The notes below the pieces were generated by a model. It searched no databases, was not told the origin of the DNA, and was given only the letters and a program-made list of their open reading frames with translations. From positions 31,735 through 95,734 of the forward strand of contig CAZSWJ010000001.1 of NCBI GenBank assembly GCA_964611095.1: a DNA stretch of 64,000 nucleotides, in the 5' to 3' direction. The DNA is from an uncultured Candidatus Peribacteria bacterium (GTDB lineage: Bacteria > Patescibacteriota > Gracilibacteria > Peribacterales > Peribacteraceae). Positions 3,176 through 55,954 of this stretch are shown here, piece after piece. Position numbers and translations under genes: made by a program. How positions within the stretch are numbered: position 1 is the first letter of the stretch; every line of letters starts with the position of its first letter.

Positions 3176-4054
3176 ATGTTGCAGCTGCAGCCCGATTTTT
3201 TGCTCCGGCCCAAGACGACGATGCGTATCGGCGGCACGGCCAAGCAGTACGCCATGCTCGAGTCGCGCGAGGACGCGGAAGAGGCGATGCGATATTCCGT
3301 GGAGCACAACCTGAAATTCCTGCCTCTCGGCAGCGGATCGAACACGATTTTTTCAGGTGAAGGTGTGAACGCCCTCGTCGTGCAGGTGAAGCATTCCTCC
3401 GTCGTCGTCGATCACCACTCGGTCACCGTGGGTGCGGGAAAAAACTTGCCGATGCTCATCAACGAACTCGCGGAACTTGGTCTGGATCTTTCGGCACTCA
3501 CCGGAATTCCGGGCACGGTGGGCGGTGCCGTCTTCGGCAATGCGGGACAAGGACCGAAAGGAGTATGGATCGACAGTTTCGTGACGTCCGTCACGGCGCT
3601 CGTCGATGGCGAATGGCAAACATTCGGCAAAGACGACTGCGATTTTTCGTACCGCGAAAGCATCTTCAAGCACATGGCGGCCCAGGGTTCGTATCCGCTC
3701 ATTTTTGAGGTGAAACTCGCCGTTCCGAATGACGATGCGGCGCTCATCAAAGCCAATATCCAGGCATTGCTCAAAAAGCGCATCGAGACGCAGCCGCACC
3801 TCAAAACCGCAGGCTCGTGCTTCAAGGCCGTGGGTGGAACACCCGCGTGGCAGCTCATCGATGATGCCGGACTCCGCGGACACAAAGTCGGCGGCGTCCA
3901 GATCGCCGAGAAGCATGCGAACTTCCTGCTGAACGTCGGCGAAGCGACGTACACGGACGCGGTCGCGGTCGTAAGCGAGGTGAAGAAAAAAATTCCGGAG
4001 AATCTGGAAGTGGAAATGCGGTTCATCGAGCCGGACGGCTCGCTCAAGTTTTAA
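3176..4054 (+). CDS. murB: UDP-N-acetylenolpyruvoylglucosamine reductase
   Basis: 292 aa with RIGG, GSGSN, GIPGTVGGAVFGNAG, FSYRES and AGSCFK motifs typical of MurB. Confidence 0.9.
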   Translation: MLQLQPDFLLRPKTTMRIGGTAKQYAMLESREDAEEAMRYSVEHNLKFLPLGSGSNTIFSGEGVNALVVQVKHSSVVVDHHSVTVGAGKNLPMLINELAELGLDLSALTGIPGTVGGAVFGNAGQGPKGVWIDSFVTSVTALVDGEWQTFGKDDCDFSYRESIFKHMAAQGSYPLIFEVKLAVPNDDAALIKANIQALLKKRIETQPHLKTAGSCFKAVGGTPAWQLIDDAGLRGHKVGGVQIAEKHANFLLNVGEATYTDAVAVVSEVKKKIPENLEVEMRFIEPDGSLKF

Positions 4055-50357: not shown

Positions 50358-50587
50358 GCTTTCTATCATCGCCATTCGAGAAGAGGGAGCCATAACTCCC
50401 TCTTTTGATGTTGATGGACTCCATGAAAAAATTAGATGCTTCAAGGAGAATTGGTTGTCGTTCGTTCCCTCTGAGAGGAGAGTCGCCGTGTCCGGTCGTA
50501 TCGATCACGAAGTCATCGATGGTGTCGTGCACATTCGCTGCCGACACCGCTCGCTCTAAATACAAAGGGAGGGTAGGCTTGCGCCCA

Positions 50588-51583
50588 ATGGCTCTCGCTT
50601 TCCTGTTACTCGTCGTCGGTCTCGCACTTCTCGTGAAGGGCGCGGACTGGCTTGTCGACGGCGCATCGTCGCTTGCCAAACGCATCGGCATTTCCGATCT
50701 TGCCATCGGACTCACCGTCGTCGCATTCGGCACGTCCATGCCGGAGCTCGTCGTGAACGTCACGAGCAGCCTTTCGGGTGCCACGGACATCGCCATCGGC
50801 AACGTCGTCGGCAGCAACACCGCGAACATCCTCCTCATCCTGGGCATTTCGGCTCTCATCACGAAAATTTCCGTGCAGACGTCCACGGTCTGGAAAGAAA
50901 TTCCCTTCGCGCTCCTGGCGTCCGTCGTTCTGTACTTCATGGCGAACGATACGTTGTTTGACGGCACAAGCGTCGCTGCCCTCACCCGTTCGGAAGGATT
51001 GGTTCTCATCGCATTCTTCTTCATCTTCCTCTGGTACATCGCCGGCATGAGCCGCAACGACCCGTCCGATGCCGACGCAGGGATCAAGGTACGCGGCTTC
51101 TGGGCTTCCGGCGGCTTTGTGCTGGCCGGTCTCGCACTCCTCATCGGCGGAGGAAAACTCACCGTTGACGGTGCCGTCACCATCGCGGAGGCACTCGGTG
51201 TCTCGCAGGCGTTGATCGGCTTTACGATCGTCGCCGTGGGCACATCGCTCCCGGAAATGGCGACGTCCATCGTCGCGGCGCGCAAAGGCAATGCGGACAT
51301 CGCGGTCGGCAACATCGTCGGCAGCAACATCTTCAACATCTTCTGGATTCTCGGCGTGAGCGCCGTCATTGCGCCGCTTCCCTTCCCGCCCGCGATGAAC
51401 GTGGATCTCCTCGTCACCATCGCGGCCACGATCTTACTGTTCTTCGTGGTGCACAGGGGCTACCTCCACAAGCGTCTCCTGTTCTGGAGACAGCGAGACA
51501 ATCACATGCTCGAACGCATCGACGGCGTGCTCATGCTTCTTGCATACGGTGCGTACATCGCGTTCTTGGCCTGGCGCGGATAG
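50588..51583 (+). CDS. Ca2+/cation antiporter (CaCA, YrbG-like)
   Basis: From ATG 50588. Alpha-repeat motifs AFGTSMPELVVN and AVGTSLPEMATS. Confidence 0.85.
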   Translation: MALAFLLLVVGLALLVKGADWLVDGASSLAKRIGISDLAIGLTVVAFGTSMPELVVNVTSSLSGATDIAIGNVVGSNTANILLILGISALITKISVQTSTVWKEIPFALLASVVLYFMANDTLFDGTSVAALTRSEGLVLIAFFFIFLWYIAGMSRNDPSDADAGIKVRGFWASGGFVLAGLALLIGGGKLTVDGAVTIAEALGVSQALIGFTIVAVGTSLPEMATSIVAARKGNADIAVGNIVGSNIFNIFWILGVSAVIAPLPFPPAMNVDLLVTIAATILLFFVVHRGYLHKRLLFWRQRDNHMLERIDGVLMLLAYGAYIAFLAWRG

Positions 51584-51695
51584 GCGAAAAAGCATCGACG
51601 TCCATTGAAAGAAAAGAGAGCTCATCAGAGGAAAACGCAGCTTTCCTTGATGCCATCATTCAAGATTTTCTCGAATGTACTTGAGCAATGGCATC

Positions 51696-51734
51696 AAAAA
51701 AACTCCCCGCTCTCTTCGGGGCGAAGAGAGCGGG
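51696..51734 (-). terminator. Intrinsic terminator (minus strand)
   Basis: 13-bp stem cccgctctcttcg / cgaagagagcggg followed by T7 on the minus strand. Confidence 0.8.
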
Positions 51735-51743
51735 ATACAAGCC

Positions 51744-52226
51744 TCACAAGCTTATTTCTCTCACGTGCGATGACGAGAGATCAGTCACGACCTTTGCGTA
51801 GCGGTCGAGGGCCGTGGTCTTTCGGCCGTGCTCCAAGAGTGAAACGCACGGCCGCACGAGATCGCTCCACAGTGCGCGGTACTCCTGCTCCGGCAAGCTG
51901 CACGCATCGATGCGTGCAATGATCGCGGGGGCGATTCGGTAGTACCGCTGCACGAGTGCGATGCCTCCGGGAGTCCGAACGACATACTCGTCGCGGAATT
52001 TCCGGAGCGTGCGGAGCTCATGGCAATCGTCGGGCAACCCGCGAGTGACGACGCATGCCGTCGTCAGAAAGCAACAGCCTGGAGGTTCCGCATACTCGTC
52101 CCAAACTCTCCCTGTCTGCCGACATATCGTGCAGGGGACGAGCACACTTTCTTGATGGCTTTCGGCTGGGGCTATGCGCACCCAACCTTTTCCATCGCAG
52201 TTCGAACATGGTACGTGCGCACCCAT
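51744..52226 (-). CDS. DnaJ-type zinc-finger (CxxCxGxG x2) protein with CFLTTAC...DDCxELxxLRxFRD module
   Basis: 160 aa. Strong SD AAGGAG 7 nt before the ATG. Paralog of 54021..54494. Confidence 0.75.
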   Translation of the reverse strand: MGAHVPCSNCDGKGWVRIAPAESHQESVLVPCTICRQTGRVWDEYAEPPGCCFLTTACVVTRGLPDDCHELRTLRKFRDEYVVRTPGGIALVQRYYRIAPAIIARIDACSLPEQEYRALWSDLVRPCVSLLEHGRKTTALDRYAKVVTDLSSSHVREISL

Positions 52227-52300
52227 AGTTCATCTCCTTCAACATAAGCCTGTGATGCCAAGCCCCTTGCGGGGAACTCCACGATGTAGAGTCAAATAGT

Positions 52301-52328
52301 AAAATACTATCAAATTTACTTAAGTCAA
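52301..52328 (-). promoter_or_regulatory. Candidate promoter TTGACT-N16-TATTTT
   Basis: On the minus strand upstream of the copy-A gene. Conserved in copy B. Confidence 0.4.
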
Positions 52329-52377
52329 TAAATCACATCATTGATACCGCTATTGATCATTTTTTTAAAAGCCGTCG

Positions 52378-52436
52378 CGTCAAAGCGACTCTTTTGATGG
52401 AAAGGAGAGTCCATGAGAGGAAAACGCAGTTTTCCT
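52378..52436. repeat. Partial third copy (~59 nt) of the cassette-end element
   Basis: Matches 53839-53898 with about 3 mismatches. It abuts the DKNYY gene stop codon. Confidence 0.75.
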
Positions 52437-53477
52437 TTACTCAGGCTTCTGCCAACTACTAGGGTCAAAGCCATCCGGACTAACGTTCGGGATCGGTTTT
52501 CCGAGATAAAAAACGTGTTTCTTATCTGCGGCAAAGTACTTTTGATCGGGTAGCAAGTGAAATGAATTGGTATCAGCATCAACAACAATAAAAGAATTGC
52601 ATGCCTTTCCTTGTTCGATGAACGCTGAATTTATTACATATACGCGATTTTTGTCTTTTGCATAATAATCATTCAGGGCTTGAAATGTTTTTGCATCCGC
52701 ATTGTTTATGCGGAGCTGATTACATATAACGCTAGTGTCGTCTTTTGCTAGAAAATTTGTGAACACTACTACTGACTTTGGTGCCAAAATTGTGAGCTTG
52801 CCCTCATAGTAGACATGCATTGAATCATGTGCCCATCCACCTCCTCCACGTATCGAGTTAGTTATTATCGTAAAGGTGTAGGGGTTTGCCTCTTTTAAAG
52901 GCAGATCATCAAAGTACACTTTTCTTAAATCCGTAGAATACCCTGCATTCAGAATTTTAAATTTTTTTGCGTTTGCCCCCCTTAAAATTCTGCCCTCAAA
53001 AAAAATATTTCGGGGGCTTATGCCATATCGCTCACTCTCTTTAAATTTTTTAGGATCGACGCCTCGCAACAGGTGCCAAGAAAAATAAACATGTTTTTTG
53101 TCTTTCGCATAGCTATCCATTAATTCGAAGCTATCTGGATCAGCTAAGGGCAAAATCTTATCACCAACATAAACGTTCTTTGAATCTTTAGCATAGAGAT
53201 TGCCATATTCAAGTACCTTGAAAGTCGCAGGATTTGCATGGGGTACGAGTGTGAGGCAATCCATTGTTGGATCTTTTGCAAGGCAAGAGCTCAAATAAAC
53301 CCTTCCATCAAATTTGTAAAATAAGTACCTATCGTCATAATAATTAAATGGAATATTAAGGGGGATTGGAAGCTCTTGCGCTACAATGCTGTTTGGCTTA
53401 AATGTGAGTAATAGTAGTGCCATTAACGCAGGAAGGACCCTAAGTTTCTTTGACGTTATGAAGTTCATGTAACGCAT
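52437..53477 (-). CDS. DKNYY-repeat family protein, low GC
   Basis: 346 aa. Repeated YAKDKxxVY motifs and a signal peptide. Strikingly AT-rich relative to the window. Confidence 0.75.
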   Translation of the reverse strand: MRYMNFITSKKLRVLPALMALLLLTFKPNSIVAQELPIPLNIPFNYYDDRYLFYKFDGRVYLSSCLAKDPTMDCLTLVPHANPATFKVLEYGNLYAKDSKNVYVGDKILPLADPDSFELMDSYAKDKKHVYFSWHLLRGVDPKKFKESERYGISPRNIFFEGRILRGANAKKFKILNAGYSTDLRKVYFDDLPLKEANPYTFTIITNSIRGGGGWAHDSMHVYYEGKLTILAPKSVVVFTNFLAKDDTSVICNQLRINNADAKTFQALNDYYAKDKNRVYVINSAFIEQGKACNSFIVVDADTNSFHLLPDQKYFAADKKHVFYLGKPIPNVSPDGFDPSSWQKPE

Positions 53478-53945
53478 ATTAGCTCGTATCAGATTGAATT
53501 AGGGACTGGATTTGGCCGCCGAAAATCTTATTGGCCATTTTTTGTTATACGTAAGCCAAAAAATGTGTTCTGTAGTTAAGTAGAACGATATTACAATAAG
53601 GGCTTATCTTATTGCAGGATCACTGTGTTGAAATTGAAATGTATATATAAAAAGCACAATCCTTATTTCCAATACCACTTGAGTGAGATTTATTGAGACG
53701 GTTCTCTTCATTTGCACTGAAATCCTTCACCCCCTTAAGAAGTTTAGTCAGGGTTGGATTATGAGAAGCCATATGTCGTGCGACGCCATCTACGAGACGG
53801 CAAAAAACTGTCGCTTGACGTGGGTCTCGTGGGCCCCACGTCAAAGCAACTCTTTTGATGGAAAGGAGAGTCCATCAGAGGAAAACGCAGTTTTCCTTGA
53901 TGCGATCATTCAAGATTTTCTCGAATGTACTTGGGCAATGGCATC

Positions 53946-53984
53946 AAAAAAACTCCCCGCTCTCTTCGAGGCGAAGAGAGCGGG
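53946..53984 (-). terminator. Intrinsic terminator (minus strand), copy B
   Basis: Same stem as copy A, followed by T7 on the minus strand. Confidence 0.8.
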
Positions 53985-54020
53985 ATAAAACCTCACAGGC
54001 TTCCTCCCTTAGTCGTGATA

Positions 54021-54494
54021 TCAGGAGAGATCAGTCACGACCTTTGCGTAGCGGTCGAGGGCCGTGGTCTTTCGGCCACGCTCCAAGAGTGAAACGCACG
54101 GCCGCACGAGATCTTTCCACAGTGCACGGTAGTCCTGCTCCGGCAGGTTGCCCGCATCGATGCGGGCAATGATCGCCGGCGCGATTCGGTAGTAGCTCTG
54201 GACGAGTGCGATGCCACCCGGAGTCCGAACGACGTACTCGTCGCGGAATTGCCGGAGAGTACGGAGTTCATGACAGTCGTCGGGCAACCCTCGAGCGATG
54301 ACACATGCCGTTGTCAGGAAGCACCAGCCTTCACTTTTGGCATACTCGTCCCAAACCTTCCCCGTCTGATGGCAGACAGTGCAGGGGACCTGGCGGTTTC
54401 CTGGATTGCTCCGATCTTCATCGCATGCAACTCCCCAGACCTCCCGCTTCCAGCCTGTTCCGTTGCAGAACGGACACTCTACATACGCTCCCAC
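54021..54494 (-). CDS. Paralogous zinc-finger / CFLTTAC-module protein
   Basis: GTG 54494 is preceded by AAGGAG at 6 nt. The N-terminus MGAYVECPFCNGTGW parallels copy A. The C-terminal two-thirds are nearly identical to copy A. Confidence 0.7.
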   Translation of the reverse strand: MGAYVECPFCNGTGWKREVWGVACDEDRSNPGNRQVPCTVCHQTGKVWDEYAKSEGWCFLTTACVIARGLPDDCHELRTLRQFRDEYVVRTPGGIALVQSYYRIAPAIIARIDAGNLPEQDYRALWKDLVRPCVSLLERGRKTTALDRYAKVVTDLS

Positions 54495-54568
54495 GATCGT
54501 CTCCTTAGAAGTTATGCCTGTGATGCAAAGCCCCTTTCGGGGAACTCCACGATGTAGAGTCAAATAGT

Positions 54569-54596
54569 AAAATACTATTAAATTTACTTAAGTCAA
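54569..54596 (-). promoter_or_regulatory. Candidate promoter TTGACT-N16-TATTTT (copy B)
   Basis: Conserved with 52301-52328. Confidence 0.4.
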
Positions 54597-54616
54597 TAAA
54601 TCACATCTTTAGGTTG

Positions 54617-54721
54617 TGGCGGAGCCAACGGGACAAAGAACCCTGCGACCTCTTCCGTGACAGGGAAGCGCGCCTACTTTCAATACCGCACTTCGTGCGG
54701 TGCCATCTGAGCTACGGCGAT
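54617..54721 (-). pseudogene. Degenerate tRNA-Asp-like copy with a hairpin insertion in the D region
   Basis: The anticodon arm CTTCCCTGTCACGGAAG and the 3' end TGGCTCCGCCA are retained. The acceptor 5' strand and T-arm are mutated. Inserted hairpin accgcac-gaa-gtgcggt. Confidence 0.6.
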
Positions 54722-54729
54722 GATGAATG

Positions 54730-54815
54730 TGGCGGAGCCAACGGGACTCGAACCCGCGACCTCTTCCGTGACAGGGAAGCGCTCTAACCATCCCGCGGCC
54801 GCGGGATACGGCTCC
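54730..54815 (-). pseudogene. tRNA-Asp copy whose D-stem 5' half is replaced by the palindrome TCCCGCGGCCGCGGGA
   Basis: Identical to the intact copy except that GCTCAGC is replaced by a 16-nt palindrome (54791-54806). The D-stem cannot form. Confidence 0.6.
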
Positions 54816-54849
54816 ACAGCAAATAGGCTAATAAAGTGTGTGATGAGAA

Positions 54850-54926
54850 TGGCGGAGCCAACGGGACTCGAACCCGCGACCTCTTCCGTGACAGGGAAGC
54901 GCTCTAACCAGCTGAGCTACGGCTCC
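54850..54926 (-). tRNA. tRNA-Asp (anticodon GTC), CCA encoded
   Basis: GGAGCCGTAGCTCAGCTGGTTAGAGCGCTTCCCTGTCACGGAAGAGGTCGCGGGTTCGAGTCCCGTTGGCTCCGCCA folds as a canonical cloverleaf. Confidence 0.9.
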
Positions 54927-55060
54927 ACATACTTGTTCGTCACTAAAACGGTGTCACAAAAGGATCAAGGCGGCTGCAGATCCTACCGCAGCCCAAGTAG
55001 CCTAGCAAATAAGCTCTTTCGTGACAATGCGCCGTGCCGTGGCTACCATGTGCCGCTTCG

Positions 55061-55954
55061 ATGGCTTTTTCCAATCCCCCAAAGGTCTCCGAATGCGTCA
55101 AAGTCCTCGCCGACAGGCGCCTGACGCAGGGCCCCGACGCCTACCGCGTCGACGAAACGATCATGCATTTGGTCCGTGCGTACACGCGGAATTTCCTCCG
55201 CGTCAGCGGGTGTTTCAATCCGAAGGATCCCGACTGGTACGGCCTCAGTCGCGCCAAGAATGCCGCAGGTACCTCGGATAGGCACAAGTTTGCGGTGAAA
55301 TGTTTGGGAGACACGATCGCCACCGCCGCGCTCGTCAAAGAGCTCGCATTCTCTGATCCTCCGATCAACGCAGACAATTCATTTCAATCCGCCGACCTTG
55401 GTAGCGGTACGGGAGTGCTCAGCGTCGGTGCCGCCATCGCCGGACTTCGCGCGGGTGCCAACAAGGTCATCCTCAACATCATCGATTGCGAAGATCTCAC
55501 GCTGGGAATGGCAAATGATACGCTTCACTCGGTCGGCAACCACGTGCAGTGCAGACCGATCTACGGCGACATTACCGATCCGCGTACGTACGACGCCTTG
55601 GATATTGATCGCGTGCGTCTCTGGATGAGTGAGACCATCAGCGACGGTACGCCGCCGCTCAAGATCGTGAACGGCAAAGTCATCTTTACGGAGCATGGTA
55701 CGCATCGTCACGATATCGATCCGTTCCCGCAGGTCGTGGAATGCCTCACGCAGAAAGTGCCCGAATTCTCTGAGCTCGTGACCCGCGGACGCGTCCGTAT
55801 GTTCCCCGATATCTTCAACGGTCTCTACCAACCGGGGGACAAGAATGTCCTCCGTCTCCTGACGTCAAAAAGTCATTCCACACATGGGCCGCTCGCCTCC
55901 GTTGGCTATGATTTTCGACGATATGAGCCTTTCCACAACGACTCGCGTTGGTAA
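55061..55954 (+). CDS. Class I SAM-dependent methyltransferase-like protein
   Basis: ADLGSGTGVLSV (motif I) and IYGDITDP. Start is ATG 55061 or GTG 55034. Confidence 0.6.
   Translation: MAFSNPPKVSECVKVLADRRLTQGPDAYRVDETIMHLVRAYTRNFLRVSGCFNPKDPDWYGLSRAKNAAGTSDRHKFAVKCLGDTIATAALVKELAFSDPPINADNSFQSADLGSGTGVLSVGAAIAGLRAGANKVILNIIDCEDLTLGMANDTLHSVGNHVQCRPIYGDITDPRTYDALDIDRVRLWMSETISDGTPPLKIVNGKVIFTEHGTHRHDIDPFPQVVECLTQKVPEFSELVTRGRVRMFPDIFNGLYQPGDKNVLRLLTSKSHSTHGPLASVGYDFRRYEPFHNDSRW

Follow-up and report, generated by a model that had tools for sequence, protein, structure and literature searches.

A horizontally acquired DKNYY gene in a tRNA-Asp-linked islet of a Candidatus Peribacteria genome, framed by copies of a gene-end repeat

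Cis-mobilizable elements (CIMEs) are pieces of DNA flanked by attachment (att) sites that lack a recombinase of their own, and they are reportedly known from the ICESt1/CIME work in Streptococcus thermophilus. Integrating elements are known to leave fragments of tRNA genes behind (PMC9897764). Here, a 64,000-nt stretch (the window) of contig CAZSWJ010000001.1 from an uncultured Candidatus Peribacteria bacterium (assembly GCA_964611095.1, hereafter G000; 1.27 Mb, 98% complete) was studied around a DKNYY-family gene, which lies in AT-rich DNA between two nearly identical direct repeats, R1 and R2. The initial annotation had read this arrangement as integron-like capture of a gene cassette. The locus is instead a further example of a genomic islet that is linked to a tRNA and carries horizontal cargo, with copies of a lineage-specific gene-end repeat around that cargo. 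The DKNYY gene is clearly foreign. It is probably cargo of a tRNA-Asp-linked hot spot that eroded an old pseudo-tRNA scar, and the two repeats would have been in place before it arrived. Loci of other genomes were compared with the window by alignment tools. The family survey covered 121 genomes, the survey of the repeat 31 sampled genera and the class-wide DKNYY survey 401 genomes, while a relative of the same genus but a different species (G002) was the source of the inferred ancestral sequence. Coordinates are collected in Table 1.

The DKNYY protein matches PF13644 with 173.5 bits against a gathering cut-off of 25, in five stretches, which confirms the family proposed from the sequence alone, and its translated N-terminus resembles a signal peptide. 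Gene callers place the start at 53468, with a 343-aa gene call in three assemblies. Mean GC content of G000 is 0.578 (standard deviation 0.042), and the segment that holds the gene, at 0.383, is among the lowest-GC stretches of the entire genome. Codon usage deviates as well: GC content at third codon positions (GC3) is 0.37 in the DKNYY gene vs. about 0.79 in the host (0.78–0.80 in two host genes) and 0.67 in the flanking paralogs, genes A and B. The best outside homologs of the protein are only 25–36% identical; the donor search found none in phages and only weak matches in plasmids. No second copy of the AT-rich segment was found in the G000 genome.

The steep fall in GC between the repeats could also arise from a chimeric assembly, in which AT-rich DNA of another organism had been joined through the repeat. 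This is extremely unlikely, because the same structure is present in three further assemblies from other samples (99.98–100% identical), one of them, a 1684-nt Logan contig, crosses both junctions into unique native sequence, and R1 and R2 have no exact 31-mer in common. Across the three other assemblies, no strain polymorphism was found.

The foreign DNA was first thought to fill the whole interval 52437–53838 between the repeats. Its AT-richness stands, but its right border had to be moved: the foreign DNA ends at about 53775, and positions 53776–53838 are native, with a GC content of 0.603 and 88% identity to a pseudo-tRNA-Asp/terminator module of G002. This native piece is composed of a 26-nt 5' fragment of pseudo-tRNA-Asp and the terminator hairpin of R2. 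The right end of the foreign DNA therefore falls inside the pseudo-tRNA, 63 nt before R2. The fragment aligns with another pseudo-tRNA of the islet (copy 3, at 54690–54719) and with the full pseudo-tRNA of G002. A minus-strand open reading frame of 74 aa across the junction (53620..53844) gave a weak match to TIGR04139 (E=0.0085), which was judged spurious.

The near-identical direct repeats of about 59 nt seen at first were recovered at 52378–52437 and 53839–53898, with 58 of 60 bases identical, and a diverged third copy (R0) lies at 51589–51648. Over the same 60 nt, R1 and R2 are more similar to each other than R0 is to R2. The 20-nt hairpin word GAGGAAAACGCAGTTTTCCT occurs three times in the window, with 0.01 expected. 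The identity between R1 and R2 was said to break exactly at the base of the hairpin; the break is actually within the stem, of which the inner 9 bp are retained while the outer 4–5 bp are gone from R1, the only copy without the outer 5' stem. The breakpoint lies close to the 5' end that units of the repeat family normally have. On the left side, the likeness possibly resumes past an indel of about 24 nt (AAAA.C.GTCG; a short, weak match), where R1 is without the terminator apex. The DKNYY stop codon does abut the breakpoint, as first described, since TAA at 52437–52439 overlaps the last repeat base. Being composed of one foreign base and two repeat bases, the stop codon suggests that the breakpoint is arbitrary and not a designed site. 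R1 bears a weak terminator, GTCGC..GCGAC plus a T run, and the marker AAAAGCCGTCGCG, which in G000 is unique to R1 and is also present in an R-like copy of G002. R2 is complete, with a terminator hairpin TTGACGTGGG..CCCACGTCAA and T run at 53802–53838, and its RNA fold has −42.6 kcal/mol (z=−5.5).

A covariance model built from seven copies showed that these repeats belong to a dispersed family, here called R, with 17 copies in G000, presence in 22 of the sampled genera and 0 to 32 copies per genome. The core of R recurs elsewhere in G000 with compensatory stem changes. Across 19 copies taken from 15 genomes, pairing in the 13-bp stem reaches 98.7%, and double-sided changes number 22 vs. 5.3±1.8 in shuffles, with none of 500 shuffles reaching 22. 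One stem position is conserved as A.C, which corresponds to G.U in the opposite strand. In the sense of the gene that precedes it, R consists of the 5' hairpin, a CU-rich linker CUCUCCUU, and a GC-rich hairpin with a T run, this second hairpin and its T run forming a rho-independent terminator. The linker between hairpin and terminator resembles an anti-Shine-Dalgarno sequence. R may be a 3'-end cap only, or a small RNA too. Copies often start 1–10 nt past stop codons or tRNA 3' ends, examples being those behind tRNA-Asp in G001 and tRNA-Arg in G023, and those on contig C6 and at C1:218039 of G000. In G023, a direct pair of R copies 1.9 kb apart surrounds an ordinary gene of native GC content, and therefore R is not a cassette end. 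R1 and R2 are thus copies of a dispersed gene-end repeat, and not the cassette ends or insertion sites for which they had been taken. An Rfam search of 51000–55200 returned tRNA only and no match for R.

A RAYT/Y1 transposase was considered as the mobiliser of R and discarded, as its presence did not correlate with R copy number: genomes with 32 and 13 copies (G041 and G046) have no PF01797 match, while four genomes with 5–7 such matches (G016, G013, G004 and G019) have no R. Two R copies of G000, at C1:2721-2860 and C13:38765-38900, share at least 60 nt more of near-identical downstream flank; both are near contig ends, and the shared flank could reflect either an overlap in the assembly or a repeat unit that is longer.

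An integron would explain the locus by an IntI-type integrase acting at the hairpin of R as an attC-type site, with the gene units as a cassette array. Adjacent units on the same strand, each ending in a hairpin element, do look like such an array, and integron cassettes are likewise units of one gene on a common strand with a hairpin element behind each. Profile searches found no recombinase in the window, in agreement with the initial annotation, and the search for intI or other recombinases was negative for IntI in the whole genome. The single PF00589 match of G000, on contig C8, is a tyrosine recombinase best described by XerD/XerC models, which scores 151 bits with the integron-integrase model TIGR02249 against a cut-off of 265. 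Besides this gene, G000 has a single large serine recombinase, on C3, and, on C2, one weak Y1-like match. By inspection, the R stem is a near-perfect 13-bp helix with GTTTTCC/GGAAAAC in place of the GTTRRRY/RYYYAAC boxes, and the extrahelical-base layout of attC is absent. The units carry their own promoters and terminators; a sigma70-like promoter precedes both gene A and gene B, and the DKNYY gene comes with 300 nt of upstream DNA of its own, unlike integron cassettes, which for the most part have no promoter and depend on Pc. R is dispersed over 17 unrelated sites. Finally, the proposed crossover at the stem base, which was to join the gene to its hairpin site, does not fit foreign DNA that stops short of R2. 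The locus is therefore unlike integron cassettes in lacking IntI and attC boxes, in its own promoters and terminators, in the genome-wide distribution of the hairpin and in junctions away from the crossover point. The integron reading was rejected on every feature that could be tested, and its probability is put close to nil. Of the capture first proposed among same-strand cassettes next to tRNA genes, the low-GC acquisition and the variable locus are retained, but not the repeat-mediated integron mechanism.

The homologous locus of G002 holds the module uninterrupted. There, AAAAGCCGTCGCG with a degenerate R-like hairpin is followed after 5 nt by a full pseudo-tRNA-Asp, an A-run, a terminator hairpin and GTCAAAGCGACTCT, a marker that in G000 is unique to R1/R2-left. 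Since G002 has both markers around an intact pseudo-tRNA-Asp, R-type copies would already have flanked the pseudo-tRNA before the DKNYY DNA came. Given this and the dispersed nature of the family, the repeats are neither products nor sites of the insertion. Based on this comparison, the following course is proposed. The 1.34-kb AT-rich segment (52438–~53775) would have landed in a 3.2-kb tRNA-Asp hot-spot islet built of pseudo-tRNA-Asp scars, R copies and accessory single-gene units. Its entry point would lie between the pseudo-tRNA-Asp and the R copy following it, with R1 and R2 already present, one on each side of the pseudo-tRNA. The insertion would have removed about 80 nt of the pseudo-tRNA, a short spacer and the outer 4–5 bp of the R1 stem. 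The near-identity of R1 and R2 would stem from recent duplication or gene conversion between neighbours, and not from the insertion. Entry may have been by site-specific integration at a tRNA, through a recombinase that worked in trans or has meanwhile disappeared, and with an att repeat that then eroded; related low-GC single-gene inserts behind other tRNAs of the family appear to have arrived so.

Several points weigh against this reading. No att-like repeat or tRNA-like sequence was found at the borders of the DKNYY insert in G000; elsewhere in the islet there are three additional copies or fragments that resemble tRNA-Asp, and the borders of the segment hold none. Within the AT-rich segment, a search for tRNA-like att or terminal repeats gave only 7–10-mers at chance level, among them GGCTTCT/AGAAGCC, an inverted pair of 7 nt close to the ends. 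A junction in the D-arm region of a pseudo-tRNA is not what tRNA integrases typically produce. Near the insert no integrase was found, and genome-wide there are only the Xer-like, large serine and Y1-like recombinases mentioned above. No genome with units A and B but without DKNYY was found, and the ancestral state is taken from a different species. R1 and R2 (97% identical) are closer to each other than R1 is to the R-like copy of G002, and gene conversion has to be invoked for this identity, or else recombination from R to R.

The latter is the main alternative. A piece composed of R, terminator, pseudo-tRNA piece, AT-rich DNA and the DKNYY gene, coming from a related Peribacter genome, would have joined a single resident R, and RecA or some site-specific enzyme would thereby have created R1 and R2; the primary insertion into the pseudo-tRNA would have occurred in that other genome. 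The closeness of R1 and R2 relative to R0 and R2 fits this course, as do the two mismatches, which agree with a crossover to the left of the hairpin, and the fact that the repeat stops close to where an R unit naturally ends. However, an extra step is needed, G002 has R-type copies on both sides of the pseudo-tRNA with no insert, other DKNYY inserts occur without R, and elsewhere direct pairs of R flank ordinary genes. Such recombination is considered rather unlikely. A late arrival of R1 was also weighed, in which R1 would be a younger copy of R2 that transposed to a place just past the DKNYY stop codon when this gene was already there; it assumes that R is mobile and homes to gene ends. The frequent start of R just behind gene ends and its variable copy number across genera would agree with it. 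But R1 looks truncated by the insert and not newly inserted, as it alone lacks the outer stem, and the G002 copy beside the pseudo-tRNA carries the terminator marker that in G000 is unique to R1, which makes a late arrival highly unlikely.

The preferred reading, horizontal cargo in a tRNA-Asp hot spot, draws on the anatomy of the islet. In G002, the stop codon of the exchanger gene is 17 nt from tRNA-Asp, and bases 1–201 and 3438–3528 of the query adjoin there; therefore, the sequence between them in G000 is an islet missing in G002. Two other genomes (G014 and G001) have different cargo at the same exchanger/tRNA-Asp site. Its location on the 3' side of the tRNA and its variation between relatives are those of a tRNA-targeted islet. 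The DKNYY gene lies between tandem paralogous units A and B, which are 82% identical in DNA. On the minus strand, each unit consists of a sigma70-like promoter, a CFI-box-CTERM gene, a 14-bp intrinsic terminator and, about 50 nt on, a copy of R: R0 behind gene A and R2 behind gene B. In the terminator/promoter scan, gene A has its own terminator at 51705–51735 and a promoter-like site at 52301–52328, and gene B at 53955–53985 and 54569–54596, respectively.

Table 1. Features of the islet and related loci. Positions refer to the window unless a contig (C) of G000 is given.
Feature	Location	Strand	Basis
Na+/Ca2+ exchanger gene, left islet border, conserved neighbour of tRNA-Asp	50588..51583	+	PF01699 E=6e-66; gene call
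Variable islet, 3.2 kb, absent in G002	51604..54837	.	Alignment; junctions read
R0, diverged gene-end repeat behind gene A	51592..51653	-	Covariance-model match, 61 bits, E=2e-15
Gene A, small CxxC / CFI-box-CTERM protein	51744..52226	-	NF041770 E=7e-14
R1, gene-end repeat, outer 5' stem lost at the DKNYY junction	52361..52442	-	Covariance-model match 52379-52442, 63.5 bits
DKNYY-family gene, signal peptide	52437..53477	-	PF13644 E=5e-51; translation
AT-rich foreign segment, DKNYY gene and ~300 nt upstream	52438..~53775	.	GC 0.383 vs genome 0.578
Pseudo-tRNA-Asp 5' remnant (D-arm side), cut in the loop of a CCGCAC..GTGCGG hairpin	53776..53801	-	Alignment
R2, complete gene-end repeat	53802..53903	-	Core 53840-53903; covariance-model match, 65.8 bits
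Gene B, paralogous to gene A at 78% aa identity	54021..54494	-	Gene call; repeat comparison
Pseudo-tRNA-Asp copy 3, D-loop insertion, altered T-arm	54615..54719	-	Read from sequence; homologous to G002 pseudo-tRNA
tRNA-Asp copy 2, GC palindrome in place of D-arm	54730..54802	-	ARAGORN yes, Rfam tRNA model no
Canonical tRNA-Asp(GTC), right islet border	54850..54926	-	ARAGORN; RF00005 68.7 bits
DKNYY gene behind tRNA in other genomes	G048 tRNA-Thr; G076 tRNA-Phe; G126 tRNA-Met
Pseudo-tRNA arrays of G000	C5:57476-57880; C3:47933-48250; C10:45560-45849; C4:34082-34230; C20:9818-9990; C9:47321-47562; window 54615-54926

Genes A and B were found in G000 only among the genomes of the family. Their proteins combine zinc-ribbon CxxC pairs with a CFI-box-CTERM domain, and their GC3 is between that of the host and that of the DKNYY gene. 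The nearest homologs, 31–49% identical, are from Acidobacteriota, Bacteroidia, an Anammoxibacter metagenome-assembled genome and archaea; a scan of GTDB with the gene A/B profile gave only distant homologs in other phyla, and a metagenome scan with the same profile gave no matches. Pseudo-tRNA copy 3 received no ARAGORN call. At the left border, the exchanger gene and its G002 counterpart are alike from about 20 nt before the ATG to 17 nt past the stop codon (window 50568–51600), so that the gene is a sharply bounded conserved block, while the upstream context differs between the two species of the genus.

Other DKNYY genes show where such cargo is found in the family. DKNYY was present in 6 of the 121 genomes, always with low GC content, and three of the four informative genomes carry it as a lone gene immediately behind a tRNA on the same strand (Table 1). 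The copies behind tRNA-Phe and tRNA-Met are 55% identical to each other. No tRNA lies close to the gene in G060; in G055 the contig is too short for a judgement. The covariance model found no R at the other DKNYY loci of the family. In the wider class, DKNYY was present in 78 of 401 genomes, and as a class-wide control none of 29 DKNYY loci was directly behind a tRNA. Many of the DKNYY-bearing genomes of the class show in-frame TGA and, therefore, probably use an alternative genetic code.

Two related inserts carry flanking repeats. In G076 (locus L044, contig C137, 843–1938), a 1020-bp low-GC DKNYY insert directly behind tRNA-Phe lies between perfect 17-nt copies of the tRNA 3' end, CTGACCTGGGCCACCAT; the empty site of this insert was sought in the congener G125, where the locus is rearranged. 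In G000 itself, an insert of about 1.2 kb with a low-GC core lies behind tRNA-Glu(ttc) (C7:25263-26540), set between perfect 13-nt copies of the tRNA 3' end (GGGGCTGCCACT plus 1), and contains one open reading frame for a 153-aa membrane protein with its own AT-rich promoter and terminator. Low-GC DNA also lies downstream, and rarely upstream, of several G000 tRNAs. Seven tRNAs (Pro-tgg, Arg-gcg, Ala-tgc, Thr-ggt, Ile-gat, Leu-cag and Asp) are followed by one to three tandem degenerate copies of themselves, in which the D- or T-arm is swapped for a GC hairpin or an insertion and the 3' acceptor end is kept.

The sole serine recombinase of G000, a 466-aa open frame, is about 3 kb from tRNA-Gln(ctg) at C3:18997-22600. 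Low-GC DNA lies directly behind this tRNA, and several low-GC patches are found in the first 22 kb of C3. The region may be an integrated element.

In bacteria of Peribacteria type, a trans-acting capture route might place promoter-bearing single-gene cassettes, DKNYY among them, directly behind tRNA or pseudo-tRNA genes, leaving repeats of the tRNA 3' end and building the pseudo-tRNA arrays. Such a route is quite unlikely. If it existed, it would be a functional analogue of the integron with tRNA-like attachment sites and no integrase in cis, the DKNYY gene of the window would be a cassette with an eroded att scar, and ultra-small bacteria would have a compact means of gene gain. These genomes of 1.2 Mb, with almost no recombinases, still gain foreign low-GC single genes, preferentially right behind tRNAs; att-like repeats flank two of these inserts and pseudo-tRNA arrays mark the sites. 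The recurrence of single-gene, integrase-less inserts behind tRNAs in these tiny genomes is a lead to follow. A false lead is also removed, as there is no integron in this genome of the candidate phyla radiation, and dispersed gene-end repeats can mimic cassette ends.

Among known systems, R is comparable to repetitive extragenic palindromes (REP) and their bacterial interspersed mosaic elements (BIME), enterobacterial repetitive intergenic consensus (ERIC) sequences and Rickettsia palindromic elements, all being short, multi-copy intergenic hairpin repeats. Like REP-type repeats, its structure is conserved across genera and it is easily mistaken for the end of a mobile cassette. It differs from all of them in its rho-independent terminator, its CU-rich linker and its frequent position directly behind tRNAs, and from REP/REPIN-RAYT systems in showing no association with a RAYT/Y1 transposase.

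The islet shares with tRNA-linked islands the position on the 3' side of a tRNA, the deviant composition, the presence or absence between relatives and the direct partial copies of the tRNA, and the related inserts behind tRNA-Phe in G076 and tRNA-Glu in G000 share the short flanking repeats of the tRNA 3' end. Unlike in such islands, the inserts here are single genes of 1–1.3 kb without an integrase, the pseudo-tRNAs keep almost their whole length but have GC hairpins in place of arms, and the DKNYY insert of the window has borders without an att repeat and interrupts a pseudo-tRNA in its D-arm region. With respect to CIMEs, no cognate integrative element or integrase was found and the insert of the window is without the repeats, but the tRNA-Phe/DKNYY insert of G076 and the tRNA-Glu insert of G000 are like them, with att-type repeats and no recombination genes.

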